Part shown: piece after piece, positions 7,701 through 61,843 of the stretch | How the letters are laid out: each line of letters starts with the position of its first letter | How positions within the stretch are numbered: position 1 is the stretch's first letter | Assembly (NCBI GenBank): GCA_041671485.1 | Contig: JBAZBL010000001.1 | Span: forward strand, 23,037 to 87,036 | Reading direction: 5' to 3' | Source of the DNA: Minisyncoccota bacterium | GTDB lineage: Bacteria; Patescibacteriota; Minisyncoccia; Phycocordibacterales; PALSA-1337 | Length of the DNA stretch: 64,000 bases | Notes under the pieces: model-generated | The model's database searches: none | Seen by the model: the letters and a program-made list of their open reading frames with translations, nothing else | Told to the model about the DNA's origin: nothing | Translations under genes and position numbers: made by a program

Positions 7701-7756
7701 CGGTAGTATACACCCATGGGGTGGGTGTAGTCCGGGTTCGACTCCCGGCAGCCCGA
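7686..7756 (+). tRNA. tRNA-Pro (anticodon GGG), atypical D/anticodon junction (71 nt, no encoded CCA)
   Basis: Perfect 7-bp acceptor CGGGCTG/CAGCCCG with discriminator A. D arm GTAT/ATAC with loop AGCGGTAGT. T arm CCGGG-TTCGACT-CCCGG. Anticodon hairpin CACCC-[ATGGGGT]-GGGTG gives U33-GGG-G37. The stretch between the D stem and the T stem is 2-3 nt shorter than canonical, so the fold is non-standard. Confidence 0.55.
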
Positions 7757-7773
7757 AGGGATGAAACAAGTCG
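7739..7773 (+). repeat. 35-bp direct repeat copy 1 (tRNA-Pro T-loop/3' end plus 17 nt of 3' flank)
   Basis: CGACTCCCGGCAGCCCGAAGGGATGAAACAAGTCG, identical to 7874-7908. Confidence 0.9.
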
Positions 7774-7873
7774 CTAATGCGACTTGTTTAGGGAGGCGAA
7801 AGGGTTTTCGATGTTTGCGAGGACGAGCTTGTCGAGTCCAAGCAAACCGAAAACCACCTGGCGACGTAGTCGC

Positions 7874-7908
7874 CGACTCCCGGCAGCCCGAAGGGATGAA
7901 ACAAGTCG
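7874..7908 (+). repeat. 35-bp direct repeat copy 2 (displaced partial tRNA-Pro 3' end); a third degenerate fragment GTAGTCCGAC at ~7925-7935
   Basis: Exact 35/35 match to 7739-7773. It is preceded by GTAGTC...GCC, which mimics the tRNA variable-loop/T-stem region with a deletion. Confidence 0.9.
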
Positions 7909-7933
7909 TTTTAACGACTTCCTGGTAGTCCGA

Positions 7934-11419: not shown

Positions 11420-12382
11420 ATGATCAATCAACTTGTAAAATATATGCATCCATTTGAAAAAATACTAAGTGTTTCAAAAGAAAATATTGTTCTTGAAATA
11501 AAAGGCTTTTCTGATTTACCATGGGTAGATTTCTTACTTAATCCTCGCCGTTTAAGAGGTAGCGACTTCTTGATGCGATGGTCACAGGGGGTTTGGAGCG
11601 AAAATCGTCTTATTGAAGCGATAAATGAAAGCGGGAAATATTTTGCCGTTCCTTATGGTCCGAGCGGAACTGCCCCAACAGACGATGTACGGGCATTTGA
11701 ACTTTATTTTGAACGTTTAGAGAAAGCAGGTCTTGGTCATATAAAAAGACCAGATTTACTTGTATTCAAGAAAACAAACGAGAAAGCAGTGAGCAAGATT
11801 CTAAAAAATATTGGCGGAATACAAGAATTGCCTTTTACAGAAGAAAGTAAGCTTGATGGATTGCTTAAGATGGCAACGGTGGCAGTAGAATGTGAAAACA
11901 GTCTATGGAAATCAAAGAAAATGCCTGATTATGAAACTCTTCTTACACCACAGAAAAGATTAAACGGTCAGTTTGGATTGAAGAAAACAGCTGTTTTACC
12001 AACTGTAATCATTAAAGAAGAAGACCGAGAACCTCTTAATAAGTGGCAGGAAAATAATAAAGTACTGATTCATGTGTGGCATGTATTTTACGACCAAGCA
12101 TTTGGTATTCCTCTCAAAGAAGTGGAACGGTTGATCAGTAATGGTCTTATTCAGCCGACGATTCAAACATTTCAGGCACCCGGCGGAGCAACGACAAAGA
12201 AAGCCATATACAAAATCTATTACCGTTATGCCTATCCACTTGGTGACGCTATAGAAGAACCTACGCTTATTTCAGATTGTATTGAGGACAAGAATGGACA
12301 CATTTTGCCGTATGTTAAATTCCATGGAGGTAAGTTAAGACTTAACAATGAAGCTATTAAAGTCCTGGATTCAATTTTATGA
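11420..12382 (+). CDS. Putative type II restriction endonuclease (uncharacterised family), translationally coupled to downstream N6-adenine methyltransferase
   Basis: 320-aa ORF with no recognisable family. Its TGA stop overlaps the ATG of the methylase (ATGA). There is a possible PD-(D/E)xK-like 'RPDLLVFKK'. The call rests on genomic context. Confidence 0.4.
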   Translation: MINQLVKYMHPFEKILSVSKENIVLEIKGFSDLPWVDFLLNPRRLRGSDFLMRWSQGVWSENRLIEAINESGKYFAVPYGPSGTAPTDDVRAFELYFERLEKAGLGHIKRPDLLVFKKTNEKAVSKILKNIGGIQELPFTEESKLDGLLKMATVAVECENSLWKSKKMPDYETLLTPQKRLNGQFGLKKTAVLPTVIIKEEDREPLNKWQENNKVLIHVWHVFYDQAFGIPLKEVERLISNGLIQPTIQTFQAPGGATTKKAIYKIYYRYAYPLGDAIEEPTLISDCIEDKNGHILPYVKFHGGKLRLNNEAIKVLDSIL

Positions 12383-13890
12383 AAAGAATTATTCATCAAA
12401 AATTACCATCTCAACACAATGAGAGAGAAAGACTTAGAGATAAGGGACAATTTTGGACTCCGAGCTGGGTTGCTGATGCAATGGTTGCTTATGTGGCCAA
12501 AAATGCCGATCTTGTCTTCGATCCCGGAGTTGGTAAGGGTGTTTTTTATAGCTCGCTCAAAAAGATTAATCCGAAAATTAAATTCTACGGTACGGATATT
12601 GACCCAAATATTATTACTGATGCAAAAGCTGAAGGTATTTTTGATGATAATGCTCATCTCGAGATAAGAGATTTTATCCTCAATACTCCAAAGAAACTAT
12701 TCCGAGGTATTGTCGCAAATCCACCTTATATACGCCATCATCGTCTGTCACAAGAATATAAAGAAAAATTTAAAGCAATAAGTATACGGTCAATGAATGA
12801 CACACTCGATGGTCGCGCTGGTTTGCATATTTATTTCCTTATTCAAGCTCTAAACTTACTCGATAAAGGTGGTAGACTTGCTTTCATTATGCCAGCAGAT
12901 ACATGTGAAGGCATATTTTCAAAAAAGCTTTGGGATTGGATTTCAAAAGATTTCGCCATTGATGGTGTAATAACTTTTGACCATAAAGCTACACCTTTCC
13001 CTGGTGTAGATACTAATGCAGTTATCTTTTTAATCCGCAAAGACAGTCCAATAGAAAAAATAAAGTGGATTAAATGTTTGGAGCCAGAAACTACTCAATT
13101 ATTGAGTCTTATAAACGATGATTTCAAAGACGATAAGTTTTCTGATCTAGTTATCTATGATAGAGATTTAGAAGAAGCAATCTCGACAGGCTTGTCAAGG
13201 GCACCACAGGATAGAAAATTTGAATTCACTTTGGTCGATTTTGCAAAAGTAATGCGTGGTATCGCTACAGGTGCTAACGAATTCTTTTTTCTCACAAAGA
13301 AAAAGGTGAAGGAACTTAAGATTCCCGATAAATTCTTTCTTACAGCAGTTGGTCGGACACGCGATGCTGAGGGGTCTTATATTACAAAAGAAACTCTAGA
13401 AAAATTGGAAAGAAAAGGGAGGCCTACGCTTCTGTTTTTTCCTAATGGGACTGATTGGAAAAATATGCCTGATTCAGTTAAAAATTATATTATAGAGGGT
13501 CAGAAAATGGGATTGTCTAATCGCGCGTTGATTTCAACAAGACAACCTTGGTATAAAATGGAAGTTAGAGAAAAACCAGTATTTTTATTTGCTTATCTTG
13601 GTAGAAGAAATGCGCGGTTTATAAAAAATGAAGCAGGGATTATTCCACTCACTAGTTTCCTTTGTGTATATCCCCATTCAGATAATAAGGAATATATTGA
13701 TAAACTATGGGGAGTTTTACAACATCCAGATACAATCTCAAATTTGCAACTAGTTGGAAAATCTTATGGTTCTGGAGCAATTAAAGTTGAGCCTCGGTCA
13801 TTAGAGAGATTACCTATAAGTTCTAAAATTATTAAGGAATTTGGTCTAAATCCTATTAAGTTGGGATTATCTTTGTTTACACAAACATAG
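12379..13890 (+). CDS. N6-adenine DNA methyltransferase, gamma-class (Eco57I/TaqI-like), type II R-M
   Basis: Motif X 'GQFWTPSWVADAM', motif I 'FDPGVGKGVF', motif IV 'NPPYI' (NPPY), and a C-terminal target-recognition region. Confidence 0.85.
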   Translation: MKRIIHQKLPSQHNERERLRDKGQFWTPSWVADAMVAYVAKNADLVFDPGVGKGVFYSSLKKINPKIKFYGTDIDPNIITDAKAEGIFDDNAHLEIRDFILNTPKKLFRGIVANPPYIRHHRLSQEYKEKFKAISIRSMNDTLDGRAGLHIYFLIQALNLLDKGGRLAFIMPADTCEGIFSKKLWDWISKDFAIDGVITFDHKATPFPGVDTNAVIFLIRKDSPIEKIKWIKCLEPETTQLLSLINDDFKDDKFSDLVIYDRDLEEAISTGLSRAPQDRKFEFTLVDFAKVMRGIATGANEFFFLTKKKVKELKIPDKFFLTAVGRTRDAEGSYITKETLEKLERKGRPTLLFFPNGTDWKNMPDSVKNYIIEGQKMGLSNRALISTRQPWYKMEVREKPVFLFAYLGRRNARFIKNEAGIIPLTSFLCVYPHSDNKEYIDKLWGVLQHPDTISNLQLVGKSYGSGAIKVEPRSLERLPISSKIIKEFGLNPIKLGLSLFTQT

Positions 13891-19196: not shown

Positions 19197-22100
19197 ATGA
19201 TACACATGAAAAAGAAGACATACGGAGGTCAGACCTCCGGAGACAAATCAAAAGAATATAGTCCCTCTTTGATTGAAAATAAATGGCAAAGAAAATGGAA
19301 ATCTTCCAAGCTTTTCAAGACAAAAGAAGATACAAAGAAAGATAAATATTATATTCTAGACATGTTCCCATATCCTTCTGGTGAAGGACTTCATGTCGGG
19401 CATCCCAAAGGCTATATAGCGACCGATATAGTATCACGATACAGGAGAATGAGTGGGTACTCGGTTCTGCACCCTATGGGTTTCGATGCTTTCGGACTTC
19501 CTGCAGAGAATTATGCTATCCAGATGAAGACGAACCCAGCTATTGCAGTGTCTCAGAATGTCAAAAGATTCAAGAAGCAACTAGAAATTCTTGGCTTTGA
19601 CTATGATTGGTCTCGAGAAGTGAATACTACAGATCCAAAATACTATAAATGGACGCAATGGATCTTTCTACAACTTTTGAATAAGGGTCTAGCTTATGAA
19701 TCATATGAGCCGATAAACTGGTGTCCTTCTTGCAAAACTGGTTTGGCAAATGAAGATGTCGATGATGGTAGGTGCGAGAGGTGTGGTACTCCTGTAGAGA
19801 AGAAGCCGATGAGACAATGGGTCTTGAAGATCACTGATTATGCAGGAAGGTTGCTTGAGGATTTGGATGTAAAGAATAATGATGATAAACCCTTACTCGA
19901 CTGGCCGGAATCGATCAAAGAGGCTCAAAGGAATTGGATAGGGAGGAGTGAGGGAGCGGAGATAAAATTTCAAATTTCAAATTTCAAAGGTCAAAAATTA
20001 GAAAAGAACATAAAAGTCTTCACCACCCGCCCTGACACCATATTCGGCGTGACTTATTTGGTATTGGCACCAGAGCATAGATTGGTCAAAGAACTTTTGC
20101 CATTGGTTGAAAACAAAAAGGAAGTTGAGGAATATGTTGGTCGTGCCAAGAATGAGACCGAAATAGAGCGCACTGATGCCAAGAAAGAGAAGACCGGCGT
20201 TGAGATGAAGGGTATCAAGGTGATCAACCCCGCAAATAGAGAAGAGATACCTGTTTGGATAGCAGATTATGTTCTTGCCGACTATGGTACAGGCGCCGTC
20301 ATGGCTGTACCCTCACACGATGAGAGAGATTGGGATTTTGCGAAGAAGTTCGACTTACCGATAAAGCAGGTCATTGCACCTTACTTCACAGACAATCCTG
20401 GAAGTAAAGATGCTGTTAGAGATAATAAGAAAACAGTAAAAAGAAAGACTGCATATGCTCTTGTCTTTGACAAAAAAAATGATAAATTTTTATGCTTGAA
20501 TTGGGAAAAATTTGGTTGGCACTCTGGGATCATTGGTGGAGTTGATGATGGTGAAAGTTTCAAAGATGCAGCTTTACGAGAAATAAAAGAAGAAACTGGT
20601 TATAAAAATTTAAATTTGATCAAGAAATTGGGAGGTGAGCAACACAATCATTTCTTTGCTACTCATAAAGATGAAAACCGATATGCAATTGGCCATGGCA
20701 TGCTTTTTGAACTTGTGAATGATGAAAAAGAATTGGTTCTCGAAGAACATAGTTTAAACCATAAACCTGTGTGGATTGATATGGATAAAATGGAAGACTG
20801 GCTCAATTTGTCAGCTTTTAAATATATGTGGAAAGCTTACAAATCTAATTCGGATTGTTTTACTGGATATGGTAGGTTGTTAAATTCTGAGAAATTTGAT
20901 GGGACAGAAAGTAAAGATGTGATGAAAGAGATTACAGATTTTGTCGGTGGTCAGTGGGTCACAAAGTATAAACTCCGAGACTGGGTATTTTCTAGACAAC
21001 GGTATTGGGGCGAGCCGATACCTGTAATACATTGCACAAATTGTTTTGCAAAAGAGAATAAAACAAACGCAATTATTTTGCATGGCTGTCCTTCGAATGT
21101 TGAAAGAGCGATGGATCCTAAAAGACAAACATATGATAAACATTGGATACCATGGACAAAGAAACAATTAGAAATAGCAGGTATTGAGACACTAGTGCCA
21201 TTGATGCCAGAACCATGGCATATGTCATATGAAAAATGGAAGATAGAATTTGATAAATTACCGATAACTGAAAATAGTATTCTAATAGGACATAGTTGTG
21301 GATCTGCTTTTCTGGTTAGATGGTTGGGAGAGACAAAGAAAAAAGTGAGGATGCTTGTCTTGGTTGCACCTTGGAAAATAAATAGTAATAATGATGAATT
21401 TAGAAATAAATTCTATACATACACTATTGACAATGAAATTAAAGACAAAATAAAAAATATCTTTATCTTTACATCAGATGATGAGGAGGATAATGGAAAG
21501 AAAAGTGTCAATATCTTCAGAGAATCTTTGAATGCAAAAGTAATTGAATTAAAAAAACATGGTCATTATATTTACGGTGATATGAAAACAGAAGAATTCC
21601 CTGAATTAATAAATTTGATAAGTTCGTTTTCTTCCAAAGTAGTACCAGTTCCCGAGAAAGACCTACCAATAAAACTACCCAAAGTAAAATCCTATGAACC
21701 CACAGGAACAGGCGAATCGCCACTCGCTAATATAGACAAATGGGTCAATGTAAAGTGTCCAAAGTGCAAAGGTAAAGCCAAAAGAGAGACAAATACAATG
21801 CCACAATGGGCTGGCTCGTCTTGGTATTATTTGCGATATGAAGATCCAAAGAATAAAAAAGCATTCGTTGACACAAAGAAAGACAAATACTGGTCACCAG
21901 TTGACCTCTATGTAGGCGGAGCAGAACATGCCACGCGCCACCTCATATACGCTCGATTCTGGCACAAATTCTTGTACGATATAGGCATAGTCTCAACCAT
22001 CGAACCATTCATCAAACTTCAGAACGTAGGACTCATAATAGGTGAAGATGGAAGGAAGATGTCAAAAAGATTTGGTAATGTTGTCAATCCTGATGAAATT

Positions 22101-22802
22101 GTCGAAATATATGGAGCTGATACACTCCGAATATATGAAATGTTCATGGGTCCATTTGATCAACAGATCGCTTGGAATACGAACAGTATGGTTGGTTCTA
22201 GGAGATTTATCGAAAAAGTTTGGAGACTAAATAATAATCTAAAGACGAATAGAGGATCGACCGTCGCAGGGGCGACAAATGGCGACTTGGCGAAGCCAAC
22301 GAAGGCATTTAGTCGCCCCGAGGAGGGAGATCCGTATTTAATTTTGATTGATAAAACCCTTCACAAAGCAATTAAAAAGGTAACCGAAGACATTCAAGGA
22401 CTAAAATTCAATACTGCATTGAGTACACTTATGATTGCTGTGAATGAAATGGAGTCTTCGGGATCGGTGACTAGAGAACAATTCGAAATATTACTGAAAC
22501 TGCTAGCACCATTTGCTCCTTATGTAACAGAAGAATTGTGGTCTGGACTTGGTAATAAGAAATCGATACATATATCAGAATGGCCAGAGTATGATCCGAG
22601 CCTAATAGTTGATAATGAAGTAAAAATCATTGTTCAAGTGAATGGCAAGGTTCGTGGTTCATTTGACGCTGATCCAGATATAAATGAAGAAGAAATGAAG
22701 AAGAAAGCGCTCAATCTACCTGAAGTGAAAAAGTGGATTGATGGCAATCAAATCAAGAAAGTGATCGTCGTTAAAAGTAAGTTGGTGAGTTTGGTGGTTT
22801 AA
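19197..22802 (+). CDS. leuS: Leucyl-tRNA synthetase with two embedded extra domains (NUDIX hydrolase; alpha/beta serine hydrolase) and one in-frame palindromic element
   Basis: 1201 aa, versus ~800-880 typical. HIGH motif 'PYPSGEGLHVGHPKGY'. KMSKS motif 'KMSKRFGNVV'. 'YKLRDWVFSRQRYWGEPIP'. C-terminal anticodon-binding domain. The NUDIX box is 'GGVDDGESFKDAALREIKEETG'. A GxSxG hydrolase nucleophile 'IGHSCGSAF' lies within the insertion. Confidence 0.9.
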   Translation: MIHMKKKTYGGQTSGDKSKEYSPSLIENKWQRKWKSSKLFKTKEDTKKDKYYILDMFPYPSGEGLHVGHPKGYIATDIVSRYRRMSGYSVLHPMGFDAFGLPAENYAIQMKTNPAIAVSQNVKRFKKQLEILGFDYDWSREVNTTDPKYYKWTQWIFLQLLNKGLAYESYEPINWCPSCKTGLANEDVDDGRCERCGTPVEKKPMRQWVLKITDYAGRLLEDLDVKNNDDKPLLDWPESIKEAQRNWIGRSEGAEIKFQISNFKGQKLEKNIKVFTTRPDTIFGVTYLVLAPEHRLVKELLPLVENKKEVEEYVGRAKNETEIERTDAKKEKTGVEMKGIKVINPANREEIPVWIADYVLADYGTGAVMAVPSHDERDWDFAKKFDLPIKQVIAPYFTDNPGSKDAVRDNKKTVKRKTAYALVFDKKNDKFLCLNWEKFGWHSGIIGGVDDGESFKDAALREIKEETGYKNLNLIKKLGGEQHNHFFATHKDENRYAIGHGMLFELVNDEKELVLEEHSLNHKPVWIDMDKMEDWLNLSAFKYMWKAYKSNSDCFTGYGRLLNSEKFDGTESKDVMKEITDFVGGQWVTKYKLRDWVFSRQRYWGEPIPVIHCTNCFAKENKTNAIILHGCPSNVERAMDPKRQTYDKHWIPWTKKQLEIAGIETLVPLMPEPWHMSYEKWKIEFDKLPITENSILIGHSCGSAFLVRWLGETKKKVRMLVLVAPWKINSNNDEFRNKFYTYTIDNEIKDKIKNIFIFTSDDEEDNGKKSVNIFRESLNAKVIELKKHGHYIYGDMKTEEFPELINLISSFSSKVVPVPEKDLPIKLPKVKSYEPTGTGESPLANIDKWVNVKCPKCKGKAKRETNTMPQWAGSSWYYLRYEDPKNKKAFVDTKKDKYWSPVDLYVGGAEHATRHLIYARFWHKFLYDIGIVSTIEPFIKLQNVGLIIGEDGRKMSKRFGNVVNPDEIVEIYGADTLRIYEMFMGPFDQQIAWNTNSMVGSRRFIEKVWRLNNNLKTNRGSTVAGATNGDLAKPTKAFSRPEEGDPYLILIDKTLHKAIKKVTEDIQGLKFNTALSTLMIAVNEMESSGSVTREQFEILLKLLAPFAPYVTEELWSGLGNKKSIHISEWPEYDPSLIVDNEVKIIVQVNGKVRGSFDADPDINEEEMKKKALNLPEVKKWIDGNQIKKVIVVKSKLVSLVV
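19223..19239. repeat. Palindrome CGGAGGTC-A-GACCTCCG (family also at 49341 and 51121)
   Basis: Perfect 8-bp arms. It lies at codons 9-15 of the leuS ORF. Confidence 0.8.
19965..19985 (+). repeat. Heptanucleotide tandem repeat (AAATTTC)x3 inside leuS
   Basis: AAATTTCAAATTTCAAATTTC. The same heptamer, x4, occurs at the 5' end of the M23 peptidase gene. Confidence 0.85.
22254..22333. mobile_element. GC-rich palindromic miniature element (family A) inserted in-frame in leuS
   Basis: GGATC...CGTCGCAGGGGCGACAAATGGCGACTTGGCGAAGCCAACGAAGGCATTTAGTCGCCCCGAGGAGGG...GATCC. About 93% identical to the infB copy (44490-44576) and the topA copy (40424-40530, reverse complement). It encodes 'STVAGATNGDLAKPTKAFSRPEEGD' within an otherwise AT-rich gene. 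Confidence 0.75.
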
Positions 22803-26797: not shown

Positions 26798-28003
26798 ATG
26801 ATTCGTCAAGACAGAAAAAAGGTATTCATCGGCCTATCTGGAGGAGTAGATAGTGCTGTTTCTGCGACACTATTGAAAAGAGCTGGCTATGATATAACTG
26901 GTGTCTTCATCAAAGTCTGGCAACCAGATTGGATAGAGTGCTCTTGGCGAGAAGATAGGCTCGATGCAATGAGGGTTGCAGCACATCTAGATATACCCTT
27001 CATTACACTAGACCTAGAAAAAGAGTATAAACATGAAGTTATAGATTATATGATAGAGGAATACAAAAGAGGCAAAACACCAAATCCAGATGTAATGTGC
27101 AATCGAACAATCAAATTTGGTGCATTTTATGATTGGGCAATGCAAAATGGTGGAGACTTCGTAGCAACGGGGCACTATGCAAGAATCAGATGCCAGAACA
27201 TTGTCGGCGCTGACTTGTACCTGCGCGAAGCCTTTTCGCCTCACCACTACTCGCGGTTCGGCGAGAAAGGTTCGCTTCGGCACGCGTCAGCACCTGACAA
27301 TGTTAAATATTCTCTATCTATGGGAAAAGACTCAAATAAAGACCAATCGTATTTTCTCTGGACATTGAAGCAGGAACAATTGCCACATATTTTATTTCCT
27401 GTTGGCAATATGACAAAGCCGGAGGTTAGGAAGCTGGCAAAAAGGTTTGATTTGCCAAATGCTGACAAAAAAGACAGTCAAGGACTATGCTTTATTGGCA
27501 AGGTTGATGTAAAAGATTTTCTTTCACATTACATTGAGAGAGAAAGTGGTAATGTTCTAAATATGAATGGTGAAATCATAGGTAAACACCCAGGATCATT
27601 ATTTTTCACTATTGGAGAGAGACATGGTTTTAGTTTAGACAAGAAGACACCAAATGATGAGCCAATGTATGTCGTAGACAAAGACATAGAGCAAAATACG
27701 ATTACTGTCGGGGTGCGATTGGCTCGCGAAGTAAATGTGTCCGACTTGATGAACACTTCATCAGAGCAAATTTCAATTGAACAAGTGAATTGGATTCGAG
27801 GGAGTGTTCCAGAAAATTTCAAGGATAAAATATTCACTGCAAGGACTAGATATAGACAAAGACTCGAAAAAATAAGAATCATTTCTGTAACATTTACTGA
27901 AACAATAATAGAATTTATGGAAAAACAAGAGAATTTAGCTAGTGGACAATCACTTGTTATATATGATGGGGATGAATGTTTTGGTGGGGGAGTGATATCT
28001 TGA
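26798..28003 (+). CDS. mnmA: tRNA-specific 2-thiouridylase MnmA (start at internal ATG; contains ~30-aa in-frame GC-rich insertion)
   Basis: PP-loop 'VFIGLSGGVDSAVSA', 'GHYARI' and 'KDQSYFL'. The ORF track start at 26672 encodes an implausible low-complexity leader. Confidence 0.88.
   Translation: MIRQDRKKVFIGLSGGVDSAVSATLLKRAGYDITGVFIKVWQPDWIECSWREDRLDAMRVAAHLDIPFITLDLEKEYKHEVIDYMIEEYKRGKTPNPDVMCNRTIKFGAFYDWAMQNGGDFVATGHYARIRCQNIVGADLYLREAFSPHHYSRFGEKGSLRHASAPDNVKYSLSMGKDSNKDQSYFLWTLKQEQLPHILFPVGNMTKPEVRKLAKRFDLPNADKKDSQGLCFIGKVDVKDFLSHYIERESGNVLNMNGEIIGKHPGSLFFTIGERHGFSLDKKTPNDEPMYVVDKDIEQNTITVGVRLAREVNVSDLMNTSSEQISIEQVNWIRGSVPENFKDKIFTARTRYRQRLEKIRIISVTFTETIIEFMEKQENLASGQSLVIYDGDECFGGGVIS
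27204..27296. repeat. GC-rich palindromic in-frame insertion within mnmA (~90 bp)
   Basis: GGCGCTGAC...GCGCGAAGCCTTTTCGCC...GGCGAGAAAGGTTCGCTTCGGC...GCGTCAGCACC, with approximately reverse-complementary halves. It encodes 'VGADLYLREAFSPHHYSRFGEKGSLRHASAP' between the conserved GHYAR and KDQSYFL motifs. It is far GC-richer than its flanks. Confidence 0.7.
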
Positions 28004-28010
28004 TAAATAC

Positions 28011-28065
28011 GGTTAACGTCAAGGACTAACCTTACTGTTCCCAAGGTTAGTCCTTGACGTTAACC
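28011..28065. repeat. 23-bp perfect inverted repeat (GGTTAACGTCAAGGACTAACCTT - 9 nt - AAGGTTAGTCCTTGACGTTAACC) between mnmA stop and clpB start
   Basis: Seen directly in the sequence. A collapsed relative (TTACGTCAAGGTTAGTTCTTG) occurs at 31193-31215. It could be a terminator or an operator. Confidence 0.8.
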
Positions 28066-28107
28066 GAACTCCTTCCCCAGCTAGAAAATCTGTGTTATTA
28101 TACTTTT

Positions 28108-30918: not shown

Positions 30919-31002
30919 GCGCAGGTGGCAGAGTGGTCAATTGCAGTGGACTGTAAATCCATCGCCCTATGGGCTCCGGGGGTTCAAATCCCTCCCTGCG
31001 CA
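30919..31002 (+). tRNA. tRNA-Tyr (GTA), class II with long variable arm
   Basis: Acceptor GCGCAGG/CCTGCGC with discriminator A. Anticodon arm GTGGA-[CTGTAAA]-TCCAT. Variable hairpin GCCC-TAT-GGGC. T arm GGGGG-TTCAAAT-CCCTC. Confidence 0.9.
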
Positions 31003-31012
31003 CATGAAAAAA

Positions 31013-31032: not shown

Positions 31033-31187
31033 GAGTGGACGCAGAGCAAAGCGCTTGAGCGCTTTGCGTGGAGGGATTTGAAAAGGTCGAGCATATTTTC
31101 GAACCTGAGCGAGCGATCAGCGAGTCGAAGGTGAGAAAATGCGAGACCTGTACAGAGTCTGTAAGACTCAAATCCCTCCCTGCGCAC
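31033..31187 (+). mobile_element. tRNA-3'-end-associated miniature element (copy 1), ending in a 20-bp duplicate of the tRNA-Tyr 3' end
   Basis: The direct repeat TCAAATCCCTCCCTGCGCAC occurs at 30984-31003 and 31168-31187. The left arm ACGCAG-[GC hairpin AGCAAAGCGCTTGAGCGCTTTGC]-GTGGAGGGATTTGAA is antisense to the tRNA 3' end. A ~60-nt core GAAAAGGTCGAGCATATTTTCGAACCTGAGCGAGCGATCAGCGAGTCGAAGGTGAGAAAATGCGA is ~97% identical to 43378-43438. Confidence 0.7.
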
Positions 31188-31219
31188 AAAATTTTACGTC
31201 AAGGTTAGTTCTTGCTGTA

Positions 31220-35859: not shown

Positions 35860-36831
35860 TTACATAAGTAATTGTTTGTCAATAGCACACTTTTCTATCA
35901 GATTCTTAGGATCAAACCACTTTATCCTCTCATCTTTCCTCCACCATGTCTTCTGTCTTCTAGCATATTGCCATATCTTCGTAGAAAGTATTTCAATCAA
36001 TTGATCTTTGTCTATTTTTCCTTGTAGGAATTCTGCTAGATAGCGATATTCAAGTCCCAATTCATTCATACGTTCATATGATAAACCATTTTTATGTAAA
36101 TTTTTTGCTTCATCTATCATTCCTATATCAATCCTATCTACAAGACGTTTGTGAATGCGTTTTCTCAATTCTTCTGATGATATATTGACACCAATAAATA
36201 TTGGATCATAATGATCGTGGAGGGATGGCTCATGAGGAAGCATTCGACTGGTTGATTCGTCGACTGGTTGACTGGCACAAACCCGCTGTCCCTCCATCTT
36301 TTCTTGTACTGAAGTCGCTATCTCAATAGCTCTTATCAAACGCCTTTTATTCTTATCATCACCATTTCTCGATCCAGATATCATTTTCTTTGCATAAACA
36401 GGATCTAACCTCTTCAAAATATCAAACAATTCCTCGACTGACTTTTCTCCTAATTCTCTGCGCAAATCTTCATTTGGTGATACATCTGGTATTTCCAGAT
36501 TATCGACTAAAGCAGAAATATAGAAACCTGTACCGCCACATATTATTGGCAATTTACCTCTATTGTGAATATCCAAGATCGCTTGTCTGGCTTTCTCTTT
36601 CCAGTCTACAACAGTGAATCTATCTCTCGGATCAGCAATATCTAAACAATAGTGGGGAATTCCTTGCATTTCTTCTTTTGTAATCTTACCAGTACCGATA
36701 TCAAGTCCTTTATATACTTGCCTAGAATCAGCAGATATCACTTCACCATTCCATTGTTGGGCCAGTTTAACAGCCAAATCACTTTTGCCAGAAGCGGTGG
36801 GACCTAGGATAATTAGGATCTTAAATTTCAT
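35860..36831 (-). CDS. miaA: tRNA dimethylallyltransferase MiaA (contains in-frame GC-rich palindromic insertion)
   Basis: P-loop 'ILGPTASGKSDLAV' and 'ISADSRQVYKGLDIGTGKIT'. An internal ~26-aa GC-rich segment encodes 'RVCASQPVDESTSRMLPHEP'. Confidence 0.88.
   Translation of the reverse strand: MKFKILIILGPTASGKSDLAVKLAQQWNGEVISADSRQVYKGLDIGTGKITKEEMQGIPHYCLDIADPRDRFTVVDWKEKARQAILDIHNRGKLPIICGGTGFYISALVDNLEIPDVSPNEDLRRELGEKSVEELFDILKRLDPVYAKKMISGSRNGDDKNKRRLIRAIEIATSVQEKMEGQRVCASQPVDESTSRMLPHEPSLHDHYDPIFIGVNISSEELRKRIHKRLVDRIDIGMIDEAKNLHKNGLSYERMNELGLEYRYLAEFLQGKIDKDQLIEILSTKIWQYARRQKTWWRKDERIKWFDPKNLIEKCAIDKQLLM
36219..36295. repeat. GC-rich in-frame element in miaA with 7-bp terminal inverted repeats GGAGGGA/TCCCTCC and internal 11-bp tandem duplication CGACTGGTTGA x2
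   Basis: Seen directly in the sequence. It is GC-rich relative to its flanks. Confidence 0.6.
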
Positions 36832-39259: not shown

Positions 39260-41710
39260 TCAAGGATTAACTTCCTTTATTTTCTTTTTGAATCCACGTT
39301 GTTTCTTTTCTTGTGCCAATAACTCTAATGCACGTTCGAATGTAATATTGTAAATATCATCTGGTGCTTTGACTGAACGGAAGTCGCCATCAAGGACGAC
39401 GTATGGACCAAAACGTCCGATCGAAGCTGTAATTTCTTTATTTGTCTTTGGATCTATACCCAATACTTTTGGCAAACTCAAATATTTGAGAGCATCTGCA
39501 ACCGTAACTTTCATAGGATCAGCGTTCTTTGGAATCGAGGCCATCTTTGGTTTAAAATTAGCAACAATTTTATTGGCATCTTGCTCTTCACTTTTCACTT
39601 TTAACTTTTCCCCGCGCGCCAAGCTTCGCCCGGCGAAGCGGGCGGGACTTTTAATCTTTATTTTCCCCTTAATCCTCTCCCCCAACTGCACATATGGTCC
39701 AAATCTTCCATTCAAAACAAATATTGGCAATCCTGTTGTCGGATCTATACCTATAGGTTCATCTTTCTTGAATTCCATACCGTCTATAGTGAGTGCTCCA
39801 TCACAATCGGGATATTTTGAACATGATATAAATTTGCCGTTCTTTCCTAGTTTTATTTCCATAGAAGGACTGCCACATTTCGGACATTTGAACTTTGAAT
39901 CTGCTAAACCAAGATTGGTCAATTTGTCTATCTTTTCTTTGGACTTCACTTCTTTGTGAAATGGTCCATAAAAGTCAGTAAGAGTCTTCAAATATGTACG
40001 TTCACCATTTGCTATTTCATCGAGTTCATTCTCCATCTCTGCTGTAAAGTCATCACTTATATAAGTAGGGAAGTTCTCCTCTAGGAATGTAGAAACAACT
40101 TCACCTATATCGGTCGGCTTTAGAGAGCGACCCTCCTTTTCTACATAACCTCTATCTTCTATAGTCTTTGAAATAGAAGCGTATGTAGAAGGACGCCCTA
40201 TGCCTCTCTTTTCCAATTCTTTGATCAAACCTGCTTCTGTATATCGAGACGGTGGTTGTGTTTGCTTTTCTTCGGAATCAATATTCAAAAGCTTCAATGA
40301 TTCTCCTTTATCACATTTTGGTAAATTAACTTCATCGCCACTTGAATCTGGATCAGCCTTGAGCCAGCCGTCGAATAAAATACGAGAACCATTTGCTTCG
40401 AAGTTTGGGATGCCACCGGCCGCTTCTCCCTCCTCGGCGCGACTAAATGTCTTCGTTTGCTTCGCAAAGTCGACATTTGTCGCCGCCTCGACGGTCGAAG
40501 CGGCCTCCGACGCCGTTCGCGGAGGGAGAATGTTCTCCACCGATTCCAAAATGTTTGCAATAATCTTTGTTTTCGCCAATCTTGCATCTGCCATTTGAGA
40601 AGCAACCGCTCTTTGCCAAATAAGTTTATAAAGACGCTTTTGTTCATCCGTATGTCCAGCAACAGATTTATTGAAATGACTTGGTCTTATAGCTTCATGT
40701 GCTTCTTGAGCATTTTTGCTCTTTGTAGCATATGTTCTTATATGTAGGTAATTTTTGCCATATTCTTTTTCTACCACTTGGCTTATCTGTGCCAATGCTT
40801 GCTCTCCTAGATTCGTAGAATCTGTCCTCATATATGTGATATATCCAGATTCGTACAATTTCTGGGCAATACTCATTGTCCTAGAAGGAGAAAAACCGAG
40901 TCTTGAACTAGCGGTCTGTTGCAAAGTAGATGTTATAAATGGTGCGCGTGGAGATCTCTTTTGTTCTGATTCTTCTATGTCTATGACTTTCCAATCATTC
41001 TTTTTTGCAGTGTCAATTATGTATTCAGCTTCTTCTTTCTTCTTTGGCTCTACAGAACAAGATAGATGCAATTTACCATCTTTTGTAGTCAACCAATCTC
41101 CAGCAATAGTCCAATATGTCTCTGGCTTGAATGCACGGATCTCTCTTTCTCTCTCCATTATTATACGTAGAGCAGGGGACTGGACTCGGCCAGCAGACAA
41201 GCCATAACGAACTTTTTTCCAGATAAGTCCGGAGAGATCATATCCTACTATCCTGTCTAGAACACGACGAGCTTCTTGTGCTTCTTTTAGATTTTCATCT
41301 ATAGGTCTAGGACTTTTGAGAGCTTCCTCTACAGCTTCTTTTGTAACTTCATGATATGTGATTCTCTTTATCTTCGATGCAGGGATCTTGTCATAACCAT
41401 CAGACAAGCCCTTCTTGGTCAGAAGCTCCTTCAAATGCCAAGCTATGGCTTCACCTTCACGGTCTGGGTCGGTTGCAAGAAGTATTTCATCGGCTTTCTC
41501 TGCTTCAATCCTTATTTCATCTATGATAGTTTGCTTCTTTGCTACGACTTCATAGTGGGGTATAAAACCGCCTTCTATATCTACTGCTTTTTTATTGGAC
41601 TTTGGCAGATCACGCACATGACCAACAGAAGCACGTACGATAAAATCTTTTCCCAAATATTTGGAAATAGTTTTTGCTTTTGAGGGGGACTCGACGATCA
41701 GTAGTTTCAT
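39260..41710 (-). CDS. topA: DNA topoisomerase I (with two in-frame GC-rich palindromic insertions)
   Basis: Toprim N-terminus 'LLIVESPSKAKTISKYLG', the catalytic Tyr region, and C-terminal zinc ribbons 'CPKCGS...CSKYPDC'. Confidence 0.92.
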   Translation of the reverse strand: MKLLIVESPSKAKTISKYLGKDFIVRASVGHVRDLPKSNKKAVDIEGGFIPHYEVVAKKQTIIDEIRIEAEKADEILLATDPDREGEAIAWHLKELLTKKGLSDGYDKIPASKIKRITYHEVTKEAVEEALKSPRPIDENLKEAQEARRVLDRIVGYDLSGLIWKKVRYGLSAGRVQSPALRIIMEREREIRAFKPETYWTIAGDWLTTKDGKLHLSCSVEPKKKEEAEYIIDTAKKNDWKVIDIEESEQKRSPRAPFITSTLQQTASSRLGFSPSRTMSIAQKLYESGYITYMRTDSTNLGEQALAQISQVVEKEYGKNYLHIRTYATKSKNAQEAHEAIRPSHFNKSVAGHTDEQKRLYKLIWQRAVASQMADARLAKTKIIANILESVENILPPRTASEAASTVEAATNVDFAKQTKTFSRAEEGEAAGGIPNFEANGSRILFDGWLKADPDSSGDEVNLPKCDKGESLKLLNIDSEEKQTQPPSRYTEAGLIKELEKRGIGRPSTYASISKTIEDRGYVEKEGRSLKPTDIGEVVSTFLEENFPTYISDDFTAEMENELDEIANGERTYLKTLTDFYGPFHKEVKSKEKIDKLTNLGLADSKFKCPKCGSPSMEIKLGKNGKFISCSKYPDCDGALTIDGMEFKKDEPIGIDPTTGLPIFVLNGRFGPYVQLGERIKGKIKIKSPARFAGRSLARGEKLKVKSEEQDANKIVANFKPKMASIPKNADPMKVTVADALKYLSLPKVLGIDPKTNKEITASIGRFGPYVVLDGDFRSVKAPDDIYNITFERALELLAQEKKQRGFKKKIKEVNP
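39596..39653. repeat. 42-bp GC-rich palindromic element (CTTTTCCCCGCGCGCCAAGCTTCGCCCGGCGAAGCGGGCGGG) flanked by 8-bp direct repeat ACTTTTAA, in-frame in topA
   Basis: The direct repeats sit at 39596-39603 and 39646-39653. The element contains the perfect palindrome GCTTCGCC-C-GGCGAAGC. It encodes 'SPARFAGRSLARGE' between KIK and KVK codons. Confidence 0.7.
40424..40530. mobile_element. GC-rich palindromic miniature element (family A, reverse orientation) with 10-bp perfect TIR TTCTCCCTCC/GGAGGGAGAA, in-frame in topA
   Basis: The reverse complement of the inner ~65 nt (CCGTCGAGGCGGCGACAAATGTCGACTTTGCGAAGCAAACGAAGACATTTAGTCGCGCCGAGGAGGG) matches the leuS and infB copies at ~85-90%. It encodes 'STVEAATNVDFAKQTKTFSRAEEGE', paralleling the leuS peptide. 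Confidence 0.75.
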
Positions 41711-43304: not shown

Positions 43305-43486
43305 CACTAAAAAATATATAATGATAGACTTATTTGCCCGGGAGCAAGGTGCATTTGCACCTTGCGAGTGAGAATCGAAAAGTCTGAGCATATTTTCGAA
43401 CCTGAGCGAGCGATCAGCGAGTGGAAGGTGAGAAAATGCGAAGACTATACCGTTCCAGTATGGAAAGATTCCCACCCCGGGCACAC
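43305..43486 (+). mobile_element. tRNA-3'-end-associated miniature element (copy 2), ending in a 20-bp duplicate of the tRNA-Leu(TAA) 3' end
   Basis: The direct repeat GATTCCCACCCCGGGCACAC occurs at 43288-43307 and 43467-43486. The left arm TTTGCCCGGG-[GC hairpin AGCAAGGTGCATTTGCACCTTGC]-GAGTGAGAATCGAA is antisense to the tRNA 3' end. The ~60-nt core at 43378-43438 is shared with the tRNA-Tyr copy. Confidence 0.7.
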
Positions 43487-43835: not shown

Positions 43836-45437
43836 TTAACCTACCTTTTCCACCGTCTTCACCGCCTCCACTCTATCTCCAACAGCAATTTCAACTTTTG
43901 CTTCTACCATAACACCAAATTCATGTCCCTCTCTAACTTCACCTGTTCTCATCTTCTTTTCTTGAAGTTCTCTTATCTTACCTCGTCCAATCTCTGCATC
44001 TCTTCTAATTATCTTTACTTCATTTCCAGTCAAAATAGTACCCGTTACAACCTTTCCACCAATAACTTGTTTATCTCTTTCTTTTGAAAATATCGCAAGA
44101 ATCTTGGCGAGGCCAATTGATTCCTCTATATATTCTTTTGGCACTTTTGCCAGTAATGAATCACGAACGAATTGAACCAATTCATATATAACTTTGAATG
44201 TTTTGACATTTACAGAATTGTGCTCGATCACAGCAACAACCTTCTTGTCTGGCATTGAATTGAAACCAATTATTGTAATATTTGGATCACCCATGGCAAT
44301 CTTTACATCATTTTCATTTATATCACCAATACCTTCGGAAACAACCTTTATTTGCACCTTATCATGTTTTATCTTTGCCAATTCATGTTTGACACCATCG
44401 AGACTGCCTATAACATCAGCTTTGATGATAATGGGGAATGAAATAATTTCTGTCTCTGTATTCTCTTCAGAATCAATAGCTGACTTGTTGTCGTCGCCCC
44501 CGTCGCAGGCGGCGACAAATGGCGACTTCGCGAAGCGAACGAAGGCATTTCGTCGCGCCGAGGAGGGGGCGACGACTGAAATCTTATTTACCTCCACCAA
44601 CTTCTCTGCCTCTTTCTTTGTATCAACTATAGTAAATGTACTTCCACAAACAGGTATTTCATTCCAGCCACTAACAATTACAGGCATTGAAGCTATCGCT
44701 CTATCAATCTTTTGTCCTTTGAAATCTTCTATAAAACGAATTGGTGTGTAAGATACACCTGCAACAGCAAATGTACCTATTCCAAGTGTTCCATTTTTTA
44801 TCAATAATGTGGCTTGTATTCCTTTTTGTGTATCCATTTCAGATTCTATGACTATACCTTCTGCAGATTTATCTGGATCTGTTTTGAGATCGGCCAATTC
44901 GGAAATCAAAATAACCATATCCAAAAGTTCTGAAATGCCTTCTCCATTCAAGGAAGAAATTGATACATTTGGAATATCACCACCCCAACCTTCAAGATAT
45001 ACCTCATTCTCGCCCAAACTTTGTTTTGTCTTATTTATATCTGCATTTGGTTTGTCTATCTTATTTATAGCAACAACATAGGGGATTTTTGCATTTTTAA
45101 TTTCGTTCAAAGCTTCTATCGTTTGTGGCTTTACACCATCTTCAGCAGAAACAACCAATATTGCTACATCAGCAGCTTTGGCACCTCTCTCACGGATAGT
45201 ACAAAAGGCTTCATGACCTGGTGTATCCAAAAATGTGATTTCATGTTTATTCCCATCACTACTTATATGCTCTACTTCATATGCGCCAACGTGCTGGGTT
45301 ATACCACCAGCTTCGCCTGCAACTATATTTGATTTCCTGATGAAATCGAGCAGAGTAGATTTGCCATGATCTATATGACCCATAACAACGACTATAGGAG
45401 GCCGCTTTATGCAGTTTTTTGTATTCTTATTTGGCAT
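43836..45437 (-). CDS. infB: Translation initiation factor IF-2 (short form; contains in-frame palindromic element)
   Basis: G-domain 'VVVMGHIDHGKSTLLDFIR', 'DTPGHEAF' and 'NKIDK'. The C-terminal beta-barrel domains are present. Confidence 0.92.
   Translation of the reverse strand: MPNKNTKNCIKRPPIVVVMGHIDHGKSTLLDFIRKSNIVAGEAGGITQHVGAYEVEHISSDGNKHEITFLDTPGHEAFCTIRERGAKAADVAILVVSAEDGVKPQTIEALNEIKNAKIPYVVAINKIDKPNADINKTKQSLGENEVYLEGWGGDIPNVSISSLNGEGISELLDMVILISELADLKTDPDKSAEGIVIESEMDTQKGIQATLLIKNGTLGIGTFAVAGVSYTPIRFIEDFKGQKIDRAIASMPVIVSGWNEIPVCGSTFTIVDTKKEAEKLVEVNKISVVAPSSARRNAFVRFAKSPFVAACDGGDDNKSAIDSEENTETEIISFPIIIKADVIGSLDGVKHELAKIKHDKVQIKVVSEGIGDINENDVKIAMGDPNITIIGFNSMPDKKVVAVIEHNSVNVKTFKVIYELVQFVRDSLLAKVPKEYIEESIGLAKILAIFSKERDKQVIGGKVVTGTILTGNEVKIIRRDAEIGRGKIRELQEKKMRTGEVREGHEFGVMVEAKVEIAVGDRVEAVKTVEKVG
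44490..44576. mobile_element. GC-rich palindromic miniature element (family A) with 12-14-bp perfect TIR GTCGTCGCCCCC/GGGGGCGACGAC, 87 bp (29 codons), in-frame in infB
   Basis: Inner sequence CGTCGCAGGCGGCGACAAATGGCGACTTCGCGAAGCGAACGAAGGCATTTCGTCGCGCCGAGGAGGG. It is in the opposite coding orientation to the leuS and topA copies. It encodes 'SSARRNAFVRFAKSPFVAACDGGDD' in IF-2. Confidence 0.8.
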
Positions 45438-46994: not shown

Positions 46995-47037
46995 TAATTT
47001 GAAAGGAGTCAAATAAATTGGACCCTTTCAAATAGGG

Positions 47038-47213
47038 TTTGGAGGTGCAAATACAGAAACTCAAACCTGCGTAACTCGCTTGCGTCATTCTCTTGTATTT
47101 TCACAAAAGACTCGACCTCTCGGACATGAACGGCCTCGTCTTTTGGAAAATACTAGTCGAATGACTACGCTCGAACAGTACTCGGTTTGAGTTTCTGTAT
47201 TTGCACCTCCAAA
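47038..47213. repeat. 176-bp element with 30-bp perfect terminal inverted repeats (TTTGGAGGTGCAAATACAGAAACTCAAACC ... GGTTTGAGTTTCTGTATTTGCACCTCCAAA); interior is an imperfect palindrome
   Basis: Arms at 47038-47067 and 47184-47213. The interior halves (GCGTCATTC.../...GAATGAC...GC and TTTTCACAAAAGAC/GTCTTTTGGAAAA) are also roughly symmetric. The element is intergenic between rplU and recR. Confidence 0.85.
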
Positions 47214-47226
47214 CTAAACTTTTCTG

Positions 47227-47838
47227 TCAAAATCGATTCTTCAATGCATTTTTTATCGTATCACTATCTGCATATTCAAGTTCTGAACCAGTAGATAGAC
47301 CTCTCCCTAAAATAGATACTTTTGTCTCTTTTGTATCGATGAATTTTGAGATTGCATCTTTGACTATATTTGTTGTATGTTCACCGTCTGGTGTAGCATT
47401 GAGAGATAGGATTATTTCTTTAGGTTTGGATTCGTCCGATATTCTTTCGAGCAATTCTTTTAGCCTAATTCTCTTGTCTGGTTCTTTGTCGAGAATTGGC
47501 ACGATGCCACCAAGAACAAAATATAATCCTCTATATGCACCACTCTTTTCTATAGATTCAAGATCTGTATCTCTAGCAACTATCATCAATGCCGATACAT
47601 CTCTAGAATTGTCATTGCATATATCACATGTAGTTTTCTTGATACCATTCTCTATAAAAAATCGATGGCATTTATTACATTCATGAGCAAGTCTCTTTAT
47701 AGTCTCTATGAGATATGTAAATTCTTTTGCAAAAGATGGTGGCCTACTCAATACATAATTCACAAAACGCCTAGCTTGTCTCGGTCCAATACCAGGGAAA
47801 TGTGCAAATATTTCTTCTAAACGATGCAACGAATCCAT
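47227..47838 (-). CDS. recR: Recombination protein RecR
   Basis: HhH 'FPGIGPRQARRF', C4 zinc finger 'CNKCHRF...CDIC', and a Toprim domain. Confidence 0.9.
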   Translation of the reverse strand: MDSLHRLEEIFAHFPGIGPRQARRFVNYVLSRPPSFAKEFTYLIETIKRLAHECNKCHRFFIENGIKKTTCDICNDNSRDVSALMIVARDTDLESIEKSGAYRGLYFVLGGIVPILDKEPDKRIRLKELLERISDESKPKEIILSLNATPDGEHTTNIVKDAISKFIDTKETKVSILGRGLSTGSELEYADSDTIKNALKNRF

Positions 47839-54298: not shown

Positions 54299-54766
54299 AT
54301 GATTGAACTTACAACAGGTGTAATCTTCCTAATGTCATCCCTATACGGCTCTCAACATGCAGATATGCAAGTTGCAAATATTGCAAATGCACAGATGCAG
54401 GACGAAGAAAAAGTAGAGAAGGTGGCAATTGTGAAGATTGTTGATCCAAAAGACATCGAAGCATATATCCGCAAAGAATTTTCTGATAAGCCAATCCTAA
54501 TTGAAATTGCATGGTGCGAATCACGCTTCAGGCAATTCAATGAAAATGGAACAGTAATTCGTGGTGAAAAAAATAGCAAAGATGTCGGTGTGATGCAGAT
54601 CAATGAAAGATTCCATGCCGAAGATGCAGTCGAACTAGGATATAACATATATTCAACACAGGGTAATACAGCATTTGGTAAATATCTTTATGAGAAGTAT
54701 GGAACAGATCCATGGAGCGCGTCCAAGAAGTGTTGGAGTCAGTCGGGTGATCTCGCGAAGAAGTAA
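54299..54766 (+). CDS. Small lysozyme-like / lytic transglycosylase (SLT-like) domain protein
   Basis: N-terminal hydrophobic segment. Catalytic-Glu context 'IAWCESRFRQ' and 'GVMQIN' fit the family-1 lytic transglycosylase pattern. Confidence 0.6.
   Translation: MIELTTGVIFLMSSLYGSQHADMQVANIANAQMQDEEKVEKVAIVKIVDPKDIEAYIRKEFSDKPILIEIAWCESRFRQFNENGTVIRGEKNSKDVGVMQINERFHAEDAVELGYNIYSTQGNTAFGKYLYEKYGTDPWSASKKCWSQSGDLAKK
54639..54766 (+). repeat. 128-bp direct repeat, copy 1 (3' end of SLT-like gene)
   Basis: 126/128 identical to 57332-57459. Similarity continues ~45 bp further downstream into terminator-like hairpins (GGCTCC..GGAGTCTTTTGTT). Confidence 0.9.
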
Positions 54767-57331: not shown

Positions 57332-57459
57332 GATATAACATATATTCAACACAGGGTAATACAGCATTTGGTAAATATCTTTATGAGAAGTATGGAACAG
57401 ATCCATGGAGCGCGTCCAAGAAGTGTTGGAATCAGGCGGGTGATCTCGCGAAGAAGTAA
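57332..57459 (+). repeat. 128-bp direct repeat, copy 2 (orphan 3' fragment of the SLT-like gene; preceded by in-frame stop)
   Basis: It matches 54639-54766 with 2 mismatches. It has no upstream coding continuation. Confidence 0.9.
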
Positions 57460-61608: not shown

Positions 61609-61843
61609 ATGGGTATTATAGCAAGAAAGTATATGAATTTCTTTATGCTAGAGTTATCAACAACAAGTAAATTTGACTATATATATCCAATTTGTTAGTC
61701 TTTAATTAGAAGTATGCAATAATAACTTACGAGGTGCTCCGATGTTCCCTCAGAATATCTGGGGCTTGAGTTGGAGAACACCACCTTGTGAGACGCTACT
61801 TCTAACAAAGAACCCCTTTCCACTTCGGTCAGGGATTTTTTGT

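Follow-up and report, generated by a model that had tools for sequence, protein, structure and literature searches.

The stretch of DNA considered here, 64,000 nt from a Minisyncoccota genome (GenBank assembly GCA_041671485.1, contig JBAZBL010000001.1) and referred to below as 'the window', carries an mnmA gene whose open reading frame (ORF) contains a GC-rich palindromic element. This essential gene serves tRNA modification and encodes tRNA 2-thiouridine(34) synthase; its product is identical to P0001, the annotated MnmA of a Candidatus Paceibacterota metagenome-assembled genome (MAG), has Pfam tRNA_Me_trans domains and is matched by the MnmA structures in the PDB with E values of about 1e-86. 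The coordinates of the gene, of the element and of its parts are collected in table 1, together with those of further hairpins found in other genes of the window.

The palindrome in mnmA and its place in the protein

A previous interpretation of this locus, based on the letters alone (the sequence-only reading), had described a GC-rich, approximately palindromic in-frame insertion of about 90 bp (27204-27296), adding about 30 residues to MnmA between the GHYAR and KDQSYFL motifs. Reverse-complementary halves are indeed present, with a repeat search finding two inner 40-nt arms (27206-27245 and 27255-27294) that are 70% complementary. The size, however, had been underestimated: because an outer, perfect 9-bp inverted repeat flanks these inner arms, the unit comprises 27197-27304, i.e. 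108 nt and 36 residues, and precisely these two ends are matched by a covariance model derived from four copies of the element (see below). The element begins at codon position 1 and its peptide, NIVGADLYLREAFSPHHYSRFGEKGSLRHASAPDNV, lies between GHYARIRCQ and KYSLSMGKDSNKDQSYFL, which agrees with the position originally proposed. Its high GC content is equally clear, with 57% in the element and 0.60 at 27200-27299 compared with 0.376 in the window overall.

When folded as RNA, the segment 27190-27310 forms one long imperfect hairpin of -54.8 kcal/mol, a stability that none of 200 dinucleotide shuffles attained (mean -33.5 +/- 3.3; z = -6.4), and as DNA it still reaches -29.6 kcal/mol (z = -4.6). 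Among 110-nt segments taken across the whole 64 kb (mean -18.8, s.d. 6.8), the mnmA element belongs to the few most stable. Folding the window copy by strand gives -53.7 for the plus and -69.1 for the minus strand; since both strands of the element thus fold about equally well, the hairpin is not specific to the sense strand of the mRNA.

In the protein, the insertion is just as sharply delimited. The MnmA structures 2hma, 9hlv and 2der align to the window MnmA as two blocks that leave residues 132-172 unaligned; these residues face about 8 residues in 2hma and likewise about 8 in other PDB homologues. The segment from GHY to KDQSYF comprises 53 amino acids (aa) in the window MnmA compared with 14-15 aa in the shortest orthologues (e.g. 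ARIEGGKMLAGKDSN). Within the set of the 120 best orthologues (54-66% identity, all Patescibacteria) it extends up to 115 aa and is longer than 30 aa in 54 proteins, i.e. in about 45%. In an AlphaFold2 model of MnmA built with 60 orthologues (mean predicted local distance difference test score, pLDDT, of 87.6), strands 128-134 and 169-175 form a beta-hairpin around the insert with pLDDT values of 96-98, whereas the inserted residues, to which low confidence is confined, have values of 44-72 and only one short predicted helix. With flanking strands modelled this confidently and inserted residues at such low scores, the insert is predicted to occupy the turn of a surface beta-hairpin, where it would be compatible with the MnmA fold, and its residues are probably disordered.

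Copies of the element in mnmA and tgt genes

Two other Paceibacteria MnmA orthologues carry the same peptide at the same position, EIDGADLYLRETFSPHKFGEKGSLRHASAPVNF in P0002 and NIDDADLYLREAFSPRKLGEKGSLRHASASVNV in P0004. Their DNA (loci L001 and L002/L003, respectively) contains the same hairpin at the same codon, with each full copy being 99 nt long, and a further orthologue, P0043, has the right half of the element only (locus L046). Alignment to MnmA orthologues, which the sequence-only reading had called for, thus did not return the same segment at comparable AT content in related lineages; it returned no more than two full copies and one half copy among 119 orthologues, the full copies having 55-57% GC in loci of 42-43% GC.

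The DNA of the element is far better conserved than that of its host gene. Between the window, L001 and L002, nucleotide identity is 0.87-0.91 within the element versus 0.63-0.68 in the rest of mnmA, and at third codon positions the figures are 0.82-0.97 versus 0.38-0.42. This jump coincides with the borders of the element; immediately outside of them identity falls to the gene background, and no gene-conversion tract was detected around the element. Third positions hold no excess of the substitutions inside the element (1 of 9 between the window and L002), which gives no indication that the peptide is under selection. It is thus the DNA of the element rather than the encoded peptide that is conserved. 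Moreover, the stem is maintained across the four copies, with 98% of its cells paired and 40 conserved pairs. Both sides have changed in 7 of these 40 pairs, a number reached by only 1 of 500 shuffles, while slid controls yielded 0. Covariation extends to the outer arms, where AAC..GTT in one copy stands against GAA..TTC in another, and GTC/GAC against GAC/GTC.

The fourth of these copies resides in a different gene. At 1278-1400 of locus L040, 123 nt of the element lie within tgt, the gene for tRNA-guanine transglycosylase, in opposite orientation to the gene and encoding a peptide with ...EEIDRRGRVPQRTFLAEFTRGEFFESMRRKGFAQAQGHAGNF... This locus comes from the same MAG as L001/L023 (ERP113451_co1_453), which accordingly has two copies, one in mnmA and one in tgt. 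The frame that is read in tgt contains a stop codon in the mnmA copies; in the tgt copy this stop is replaced by a change from TCA to TCC (element strand). Common, genome-specific termini (GAAATTG..CAATTTC) and a CTGCGG variant are found in both copies of this genome, a pattern that points to spread or homogenisation of the element within it. Among the 120 best Tgt orthologues the element is present in P0122 only and missing from the other 119; the equivalent loop in Tgt varies from 14 to 66 aa and has recurring inserts.

Overall, the element is a discrete hairpin-forming unit of 99-123 nt with conserved termini, which occurs in at least two unrelated host genes and in both orientations, but always in frame and free of stops: the four full copies measure 99, 99, 108 and 123 nt, all of them multiples of 3 and open in the frame used. 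Third-position conservation of the DNA, covariation of the stem and the reversed copy in tgt all support the proposal of a palindromic element as opposed to an ordinary protein loop.

Its distribution among mnmA genes is patchy, with some orthologues having the element and those most closely related to them lacking it. In conserved MnmA columns, the carriers are 66-73% identical to one another. P0034, with a loop of 15 aa and in the same synteny, shares 84% identity with the carrier P0004. The locus of this relative (L047), from the same aquifer and with the same gene order as L002, has an empty site: its mnmA DNA is 82% identical to that of L002 but without the 99 nt and two adjacent codons. 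Both alleles, the filled one of P0004 and the empty one of P0034, are present in the Hainich wells H41 and H43. This empty site in the relative of another carrier, together with the short loops of 14-15 aa in other orthologues, confirms the in-frame insertion in mnmA. Opposite the element end GTCAATGTT of L002, L047 has GTTAATCAT, which might be the footprint of a deletion or else an outer stem derived from the host; with matches at 6 of 9 positions, this was too weak to be used. P0043 with its decayed half-copy is 86% identical to the element-free P0036, and the closest relatives of P0001 itself (P0003, P0005 and P0009, at 72%) are all without the element.

The sequence-only reading had also called for a search of the genome for related copies. 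None other was found in the 64-kb window, but the wider collections contained those in L001, L002/L003, L046 (half-copy) and L040 (tgt), which brings the total to four full copies and one half copy across all collections searched. A right-arm pattern scan of genome contigs gave 39 loci, of which L023, L031 and L040 are true; about 35 of the 39 were rejected as an unrelated high-GC gene of Verrucomicrobia and others. A metagenome scan with both inner arms found again the P0004 mnmA only. Among 1.84 billion cluster representatives, HMMER matched the 36-aa peptide to P0121 alone, an unrelated tandem-repeat protein and thus a spurious hit; at 50% identity, such clustering hides most carriers, and the in-frame peptide is rare. 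Six-frame peptides of the element had no match in an index of 5.8 billion proteins, but this carries no weight in either direction, since P0001 itself was missed there (8e-13 in a local phmmer search).

Other hairpin families in the same genes and loops

Several families of intragenic palindromes coexist in the window, as had been suspected. Family A has in-frame copies in three essential genes, leuS, topA and infB; these are GC-rich hairpins with minimum free energies of -46 to -60 kcal/mol and an apex GCGAAGC with compensatory flanking pairs, which encode STVAGATNGDLAKPTKAFSRPEEG and STVEAATNVDFAKQTKTFSRAEEG in one orientation (two copies) and SVVAPSSARRNAFVRFAKSPFVAACDGG in the other (one copy). 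The assignment of the mnmA element to a different sequence family holds, with local-alignment z values below 2 against all three family A copies, compared with about 30 for family A copies among themselves. A further in-frame hairpin is found in miaA and has no detectable similarity to the mnmA element either (z < 2, local alignment). The leucyl-tRNA synthetase that carries one of the family A copies is long: it has 1201 aa, whereas relatives have 860 aa (L002) or 1027 aa (L001). NUDIX and Ser_hydrolase domains are inserted between its synthetase domains, in addition to the family A element.

The MnmA loop itself is filled by different palindromes in different genomes. Read as DNA, insertions at this loop form strong GC-rich hairpins in six of seven loci. 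That of P0003 (L045) folds at -52.6 kcal/mol; it was rejected as a reversed version of the mnmA element, being a different GC hairpin with weak similarity to family A. L049 (10403-10561, -85.7 kcal/mol) and L050 (6489-6671, -83.6 kcal/mol) have one family at the MnmA loop in opposite orientations: a core of about 70 nt (GGGCACATGTCGCGCCTTGCTAGGCGCGCATTCC...) is flipped between the two genomes, with both orientations being open and giving peptides of the types SGHMSRLARRAF... and ...GGAKAPRRNARLARRDMCP; around it lie perfect outer stems, about 20 bp in length and of different sequence in each genome. Such a layout would suit an invertible cassette.

There are signs of additional families. Mutually similar hairpins with 64-72% GC are found at 1206-1297 of L002, within leuS, and at 1444-1533 of L045, a second site in the P0003 mnmA; they (...TTCCCTCCRCGAGCC...GGCTCGYTCCGSGAAGTG...) are weakly matched by the covariance model of the element and look like another intragenic family. 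A peptide ...TDISLLGNSSCSRQSRSQ... recurs in Tgt loops and is present also in the MnmA loop of P0080. The MnmA loop of P0080 has a peptide ...DISLLGNSSCSRQSRSQ... as well, which is found again in the Tgt loops of P0176 and P0211, all from different Paceibacteria, and this peptide appears to represent a further element family common to MnmA and Tgt.

Table 1. Position and properties of the mnmA element, its host gene and other intragenic hairpins in the window.
Feature	Position	Strand or host gene	Description
mnmA, host gene (tRNA 2-thiouridine(34) synthase)	26798-28003	+	ATG at 26798, stop at 28001-28003; ORF of 401 aa
Whole palindromic element	27197-27304	+	108 nt, 36 in-frame codons; encodes NIVGADLYLREAFSPHHYSRFGEKGSLRHASAPDNV, MnmA residues 134-169
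Outer left arm AACATTGTC	27197-27205	+	AT-rich; perfect 9-bp inverted repeat; covaries with right arm
GC-rich left arm	27206-27245	+	40 nt; contains GCGAAGC
Apical region between arms	27246-27254	+	unpaired or variable part; length varies among copies
GC-rich right arm	27255-27294	+	40 nt; contains GGCGAGAAAGGTTCGCTTCGGCACGCGTCAGC, the most conserved stretch
Outer right arm GACAATGTT	27296-27304	+	partner of AACATTGTC; perfect 9-bp inverted repeat
Family A copy	~22258-22336	+, in leuS 19197-22802	in frame
Family A copy	~40418-40508	in topA 39260-41710, minus	in frame; orientation relative to gene as in leuS
Family A copy	~44489-44578	in infB 43836-45437, minus	in frame; opposite orientation to leuS and topA copies
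Further hairpin	36204-36300	in miaA 35860-36831, minus	~97 nt, in frame; -41 kcal/mol, 52% GC; encodes KMEGQRVCASQPVDESTSRMLPHEPSLHDHYDP

Origin and persistence of the element

[quoted passage not shown] Such an element would have arrived by insertion, with recognition of a single-stranded hairpin or recombination being possible ways of movement. It would be transcribed together with mnmA and translated without splicing or bypass, and may persist because a surface beta-hairpin of MnmA would tolerate 36 additional, probably disordered residues at its two-residue turn. The palindrome as such may be kept by the needs of the element's own propagation or by templated correction from arm to arm, and probably is of no use to the host.

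Several points weigh against this interpretation. The copy number is low, with a single copy in the 64-kb window and few overall, and we therefore infer mobility from the distribution of the element rather than from observed movement, just as we infer its translation solely from the preservation of its reading frames. Neither a target-site duplication nor a shared target motif is present in the flanks of the four copies (CAG..AAA, CAA..AGG, CGG..ATA and TTG..TTC). No transposase or recombinase is among 27 ORFs of the window (mnmA plus 26 scanned against Pfam, out of about 43 larger ORFs in all), and two scans of viral contigs yielded no copy of the element. Furthermore, three mnmA copies at the same codon, in the same orientation and in the same frame are unlikely to be independent random insertions (about 1% by a rough estimate), unless insertions are tolerated only in a very narrow stretch such as the two-residue turn. 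The same pattern of a shared site could result from vertical descent combined with several losses and strong nucleotide-level constraint, and the MnmA tree on which relatedness is judged is a rough neighbour-joining tree with long branches.

The shared codon, orientation and frame are the main argument for the alternative of an ancient, vertically inherited insertion, whose hairpin would serve the host as a DNA or mRNA structure and which the relatives would have lost; its role could be in ribosome pausing for MnmA folding, in mRNA stability or as a binding site for an RNase or another protein. Besides the identical codon, orientation and frame in three divergent mnmA genes, the very strong conservation of the element versus the saturated flanks, the covarying stem, the conserved synteny around mnmA among the carriers and the decayed half-copy in P0043, which suggests age, are in line with this scenario. 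Yet it would require several independent and precise losses, as the closest relatives of each carrier are element-free, and the reversed copy in tgt fits neither a sense-strand RNA nor a role specific to MnmA. In the mnmA copies, folding of the antisense strand is no weaker than that of the sense strand, and no Rfam family—introns included—matches the region 27100-27400 up to E = 10, let alone at the gathering threshold. Terminator or promoter features, when sought for the element, were not found, and many unrelated hairpin families sit at the same MnmA loop in other genomes. Altogether, a functional hairpin of this type appears unlikely, though not to an extreme degree. A larger scheme, in which the hairpins are not mere passive passengers and a Paceibacteria-wide system of sequence-conserved cassettes repeatedly occupies permissive loops of essential translation and tRNA modification proteins (MnmA, Tgt, MiaA, LeuRS, IF-2 and TopA), seems quite improbable. 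Possible versions of it are homing to a single site without an encoded endonuclease, e.g. through transformation and recombination or with the help of a hairpin-specific recombinase whose gene lies elsewhere, or invertible modules that recode surface loops. If such a system did exist, the near-identical element in synonymously saturated mnmA genes would mean ongoing horizontal exchange between lineages of the candidate phyla radiation (CPR).

A compact and very stable hairpin within an ORF could also be an intervening sequence that is absent from the protein, either because it is excised from the mRNA or because ribosomes bypass it, as in T4 gene 60 or with the byps of Magnusiomyces, and bypassed GC-rich palindromes are indeed known from AT-rich mitochondrial genomes. 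However, the four full copies are open and multiples of 3, and the one stop of the tgt copy has been mutated away, which points to selection for translatability, for which an element that is removed would have no need. The flanking codons of the mnmA copies differ (CAG/AAA, CAA/AGG and CGG/ATA) and hence provide no take-off and landing pair for a bypass. Motifs of inteins or introns are missing and, with 36 aa or 108 nt, the element is far too small for either, considering that a mini-intein has a minimum of about 130 aa or more and that a group I or group II intron needs a structure of its own; in addition, the residue following the insert is K, R or I and not C, S or T. Removal at the RNA level or during translation is thus very unlikely. 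About as little speaks for a phase-variable cassette, in which recombination between the arms would flip the centre and so switch the loop between two peptides, and we consider this marginally less probable still for the window element. Intragenic invertons are known (bioRxiv 10.1101/2023.03.11.532203), and the family in L049 and L050, with its core of about 70 nt in opposite orientations at the same MnmA loop and its perfect 20-bp inverted repeats, fits this explanation better than the window element does. In the latter, the arms are nearly contiguous, such that inversion would alter only an apex of 10-34 nt, and no invertase or recombinase is encoded by the scanned window ORFs. Finally, the source is a MAG and library artefacts can create palindromes, but a chimeric join or a mis-assembled repeat is a negligible option: assemblies from NCBI, JGI, ENA and Logan contain the P0001 protein on two contigs, the longest of 121,530 bp; independent assembly recovered the P0004 version from no fewer than four samples or assemblies (L002, L003/L031, L043 and L044); and the reading frame is intact.

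A non-autonomous palindromic repeat, as favoured here, has counterparts elsewhere. The Rickettsia elements RPE-1 to RPE-10 (Ogata et al. 2000, as summarized in PMC10969869 and PMC3184786) are, according to these summaries, palindromic or hairpin-forming sequences of about 100-150 bp, which come in several coexisting families without a transposase of their own, often lie in frame in unrelated housekeeping genes of an AT-rich reduced genome and are translated as an extra peptide thought to be compatible with the fold. The likeness is one of behaviour, with no sequence relationship being claimed, as the mnmA element stems from a different phylum (Paceibacteria/CPR). Unlike RPEs, it is markedly GC-rich relative to its host and has very few known copies, compared with the 44 given for RPE-1 in R. 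conorii in these sources, and in Paceibacteria one and the same protein loop is filled by different families, in both orientations, across genomes. Bacterial MITEs and small palindromic repeats such as ERIC, Correia, BOX, RUP and Nezha (PMC3184786, PMC10969869) are similarly small and non-autonomous, have inverted termini and a long stem-loop, occur at filled and empty sites in related genomes and occasionally give rise to ORF fusions. The mnmA element has terminal inverted repeats as well, i.e. its perfect 9-bp termini; in one genome, such termini are conserved in the mnmA and the tgt copy alike. It differs from MITEs, however, in having no detectable target-site duplication, in that no related insertion sequence came to light (none of the 26 window ORFs scanned against Pfam has a transposase domain), in forming a single hairpin as a whole unit rather than terminal repeats around a core, and in the intragenic position of all copies seen.

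GC clusters and hairpin elements in mitochondria—among them the GC clusters of yeast including the insertion in var1, the elements of sponges and placozoans, and the byps of Magnusiomyces—are also GC-rich palindromes that spread in AT-rich, gene-dense genomes and enter protein-coding genes. In contrast to the mnmA element they are organellar and shorter (30-60 nt), and some are bypassed or disrupt the frame, whereas the mnmA element leaves the frame intact and is most simply read as translated. REP or BIME sequences with their RAYT transposases (PMC3733652) share the property of being GC-rich palindromes that are probably recognized as single-stranded hairpins, but they are 20-40 bp long, extragenic and present in high copy number, and have GTAG or CGTC tags, all of these being features that the mnmA element lacks.

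Apart from the GC clusters of mitochondria, in-frame palindromic elements have so far been regarded mainly as a Rickettsia peculiarity; here they are found in the CPR and in several unrelated families, and a literature search did not find such elements described for the CPR. Close to half of the best MnmA orthologues bear an insertion of some kind at a single beta-turn. This suggests a general rule, according to which selfish hairpin DNA in small, AT-rich and gene-dense genomes with little intergenic space survives within tolerant loops of proteins. Most striking is that several hairpin families have repeatedly come to occupy a single turn of MnmA. Palindromic elements would partly account for the unusually variable lengths of conserved proteins in the CPR, and such loops should not be mistaken for lineage-specific functional domains or used as phylogenetic characters. 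At the same time, these elements could provide a natural map of the sites where MnmA and Tgt permit insertions and serve as markers for tracing the exchange of DNA between uncultivated lineages.

The window contains other repeats and structured sequences. Directly after the mnmA stop codon, in the spacer at 28010-28066, lies a perfect stem of 24 bp closed by a 9-nt loop (CGGTTAACGTCAAGGACTAACCTT...AAGGTTAGTCCTTGACGTTAACCG), which is not a classical terminator, as it is not followed by a T-run, and has no second copy within the window. A perfect 31-bp inverted repeat (GTTTGGAGGTGCAAATACAGAAACTCAAACC; 47037-47067 and 47184-47214) surrounds 116 nt beside or overlapping the 3' end of recR (47227-47838, minus strand) and could be a MITE-like unit or an invertible segment. 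Two direct repeats of 128 nt (54639-54766 and 57332-57459), 98% identical and 2.7 kb apart, bracket a gene for an NYN-domain protein (56131-57174, minus strand), with a Bro-N domain gene (57631-58245) following, and may represent the ends of an integrated element. Duplications of the 3' part of tRNA-Pro and of sequences adjacent to tRNA-Tyr and tRNA-Leu (7739-7785 and 7874-7920; 30984-31004 and 31168-31188; 31075-31188 and 43372-43485), with identities of 89-100% and 78%, may be integration scars or tRNA-associated repeats. At 61708-61803 on the plus strand, a DUF3800-V RNA motif gives a strong match to Rfam (82.6 bits, E = 2e-17), and at 11420-13890 a gene for an AccI-like restriction endonuclease adjoins that of an Eco57I-type N6 methyltransferase, the two forming a restriction-modification pair.

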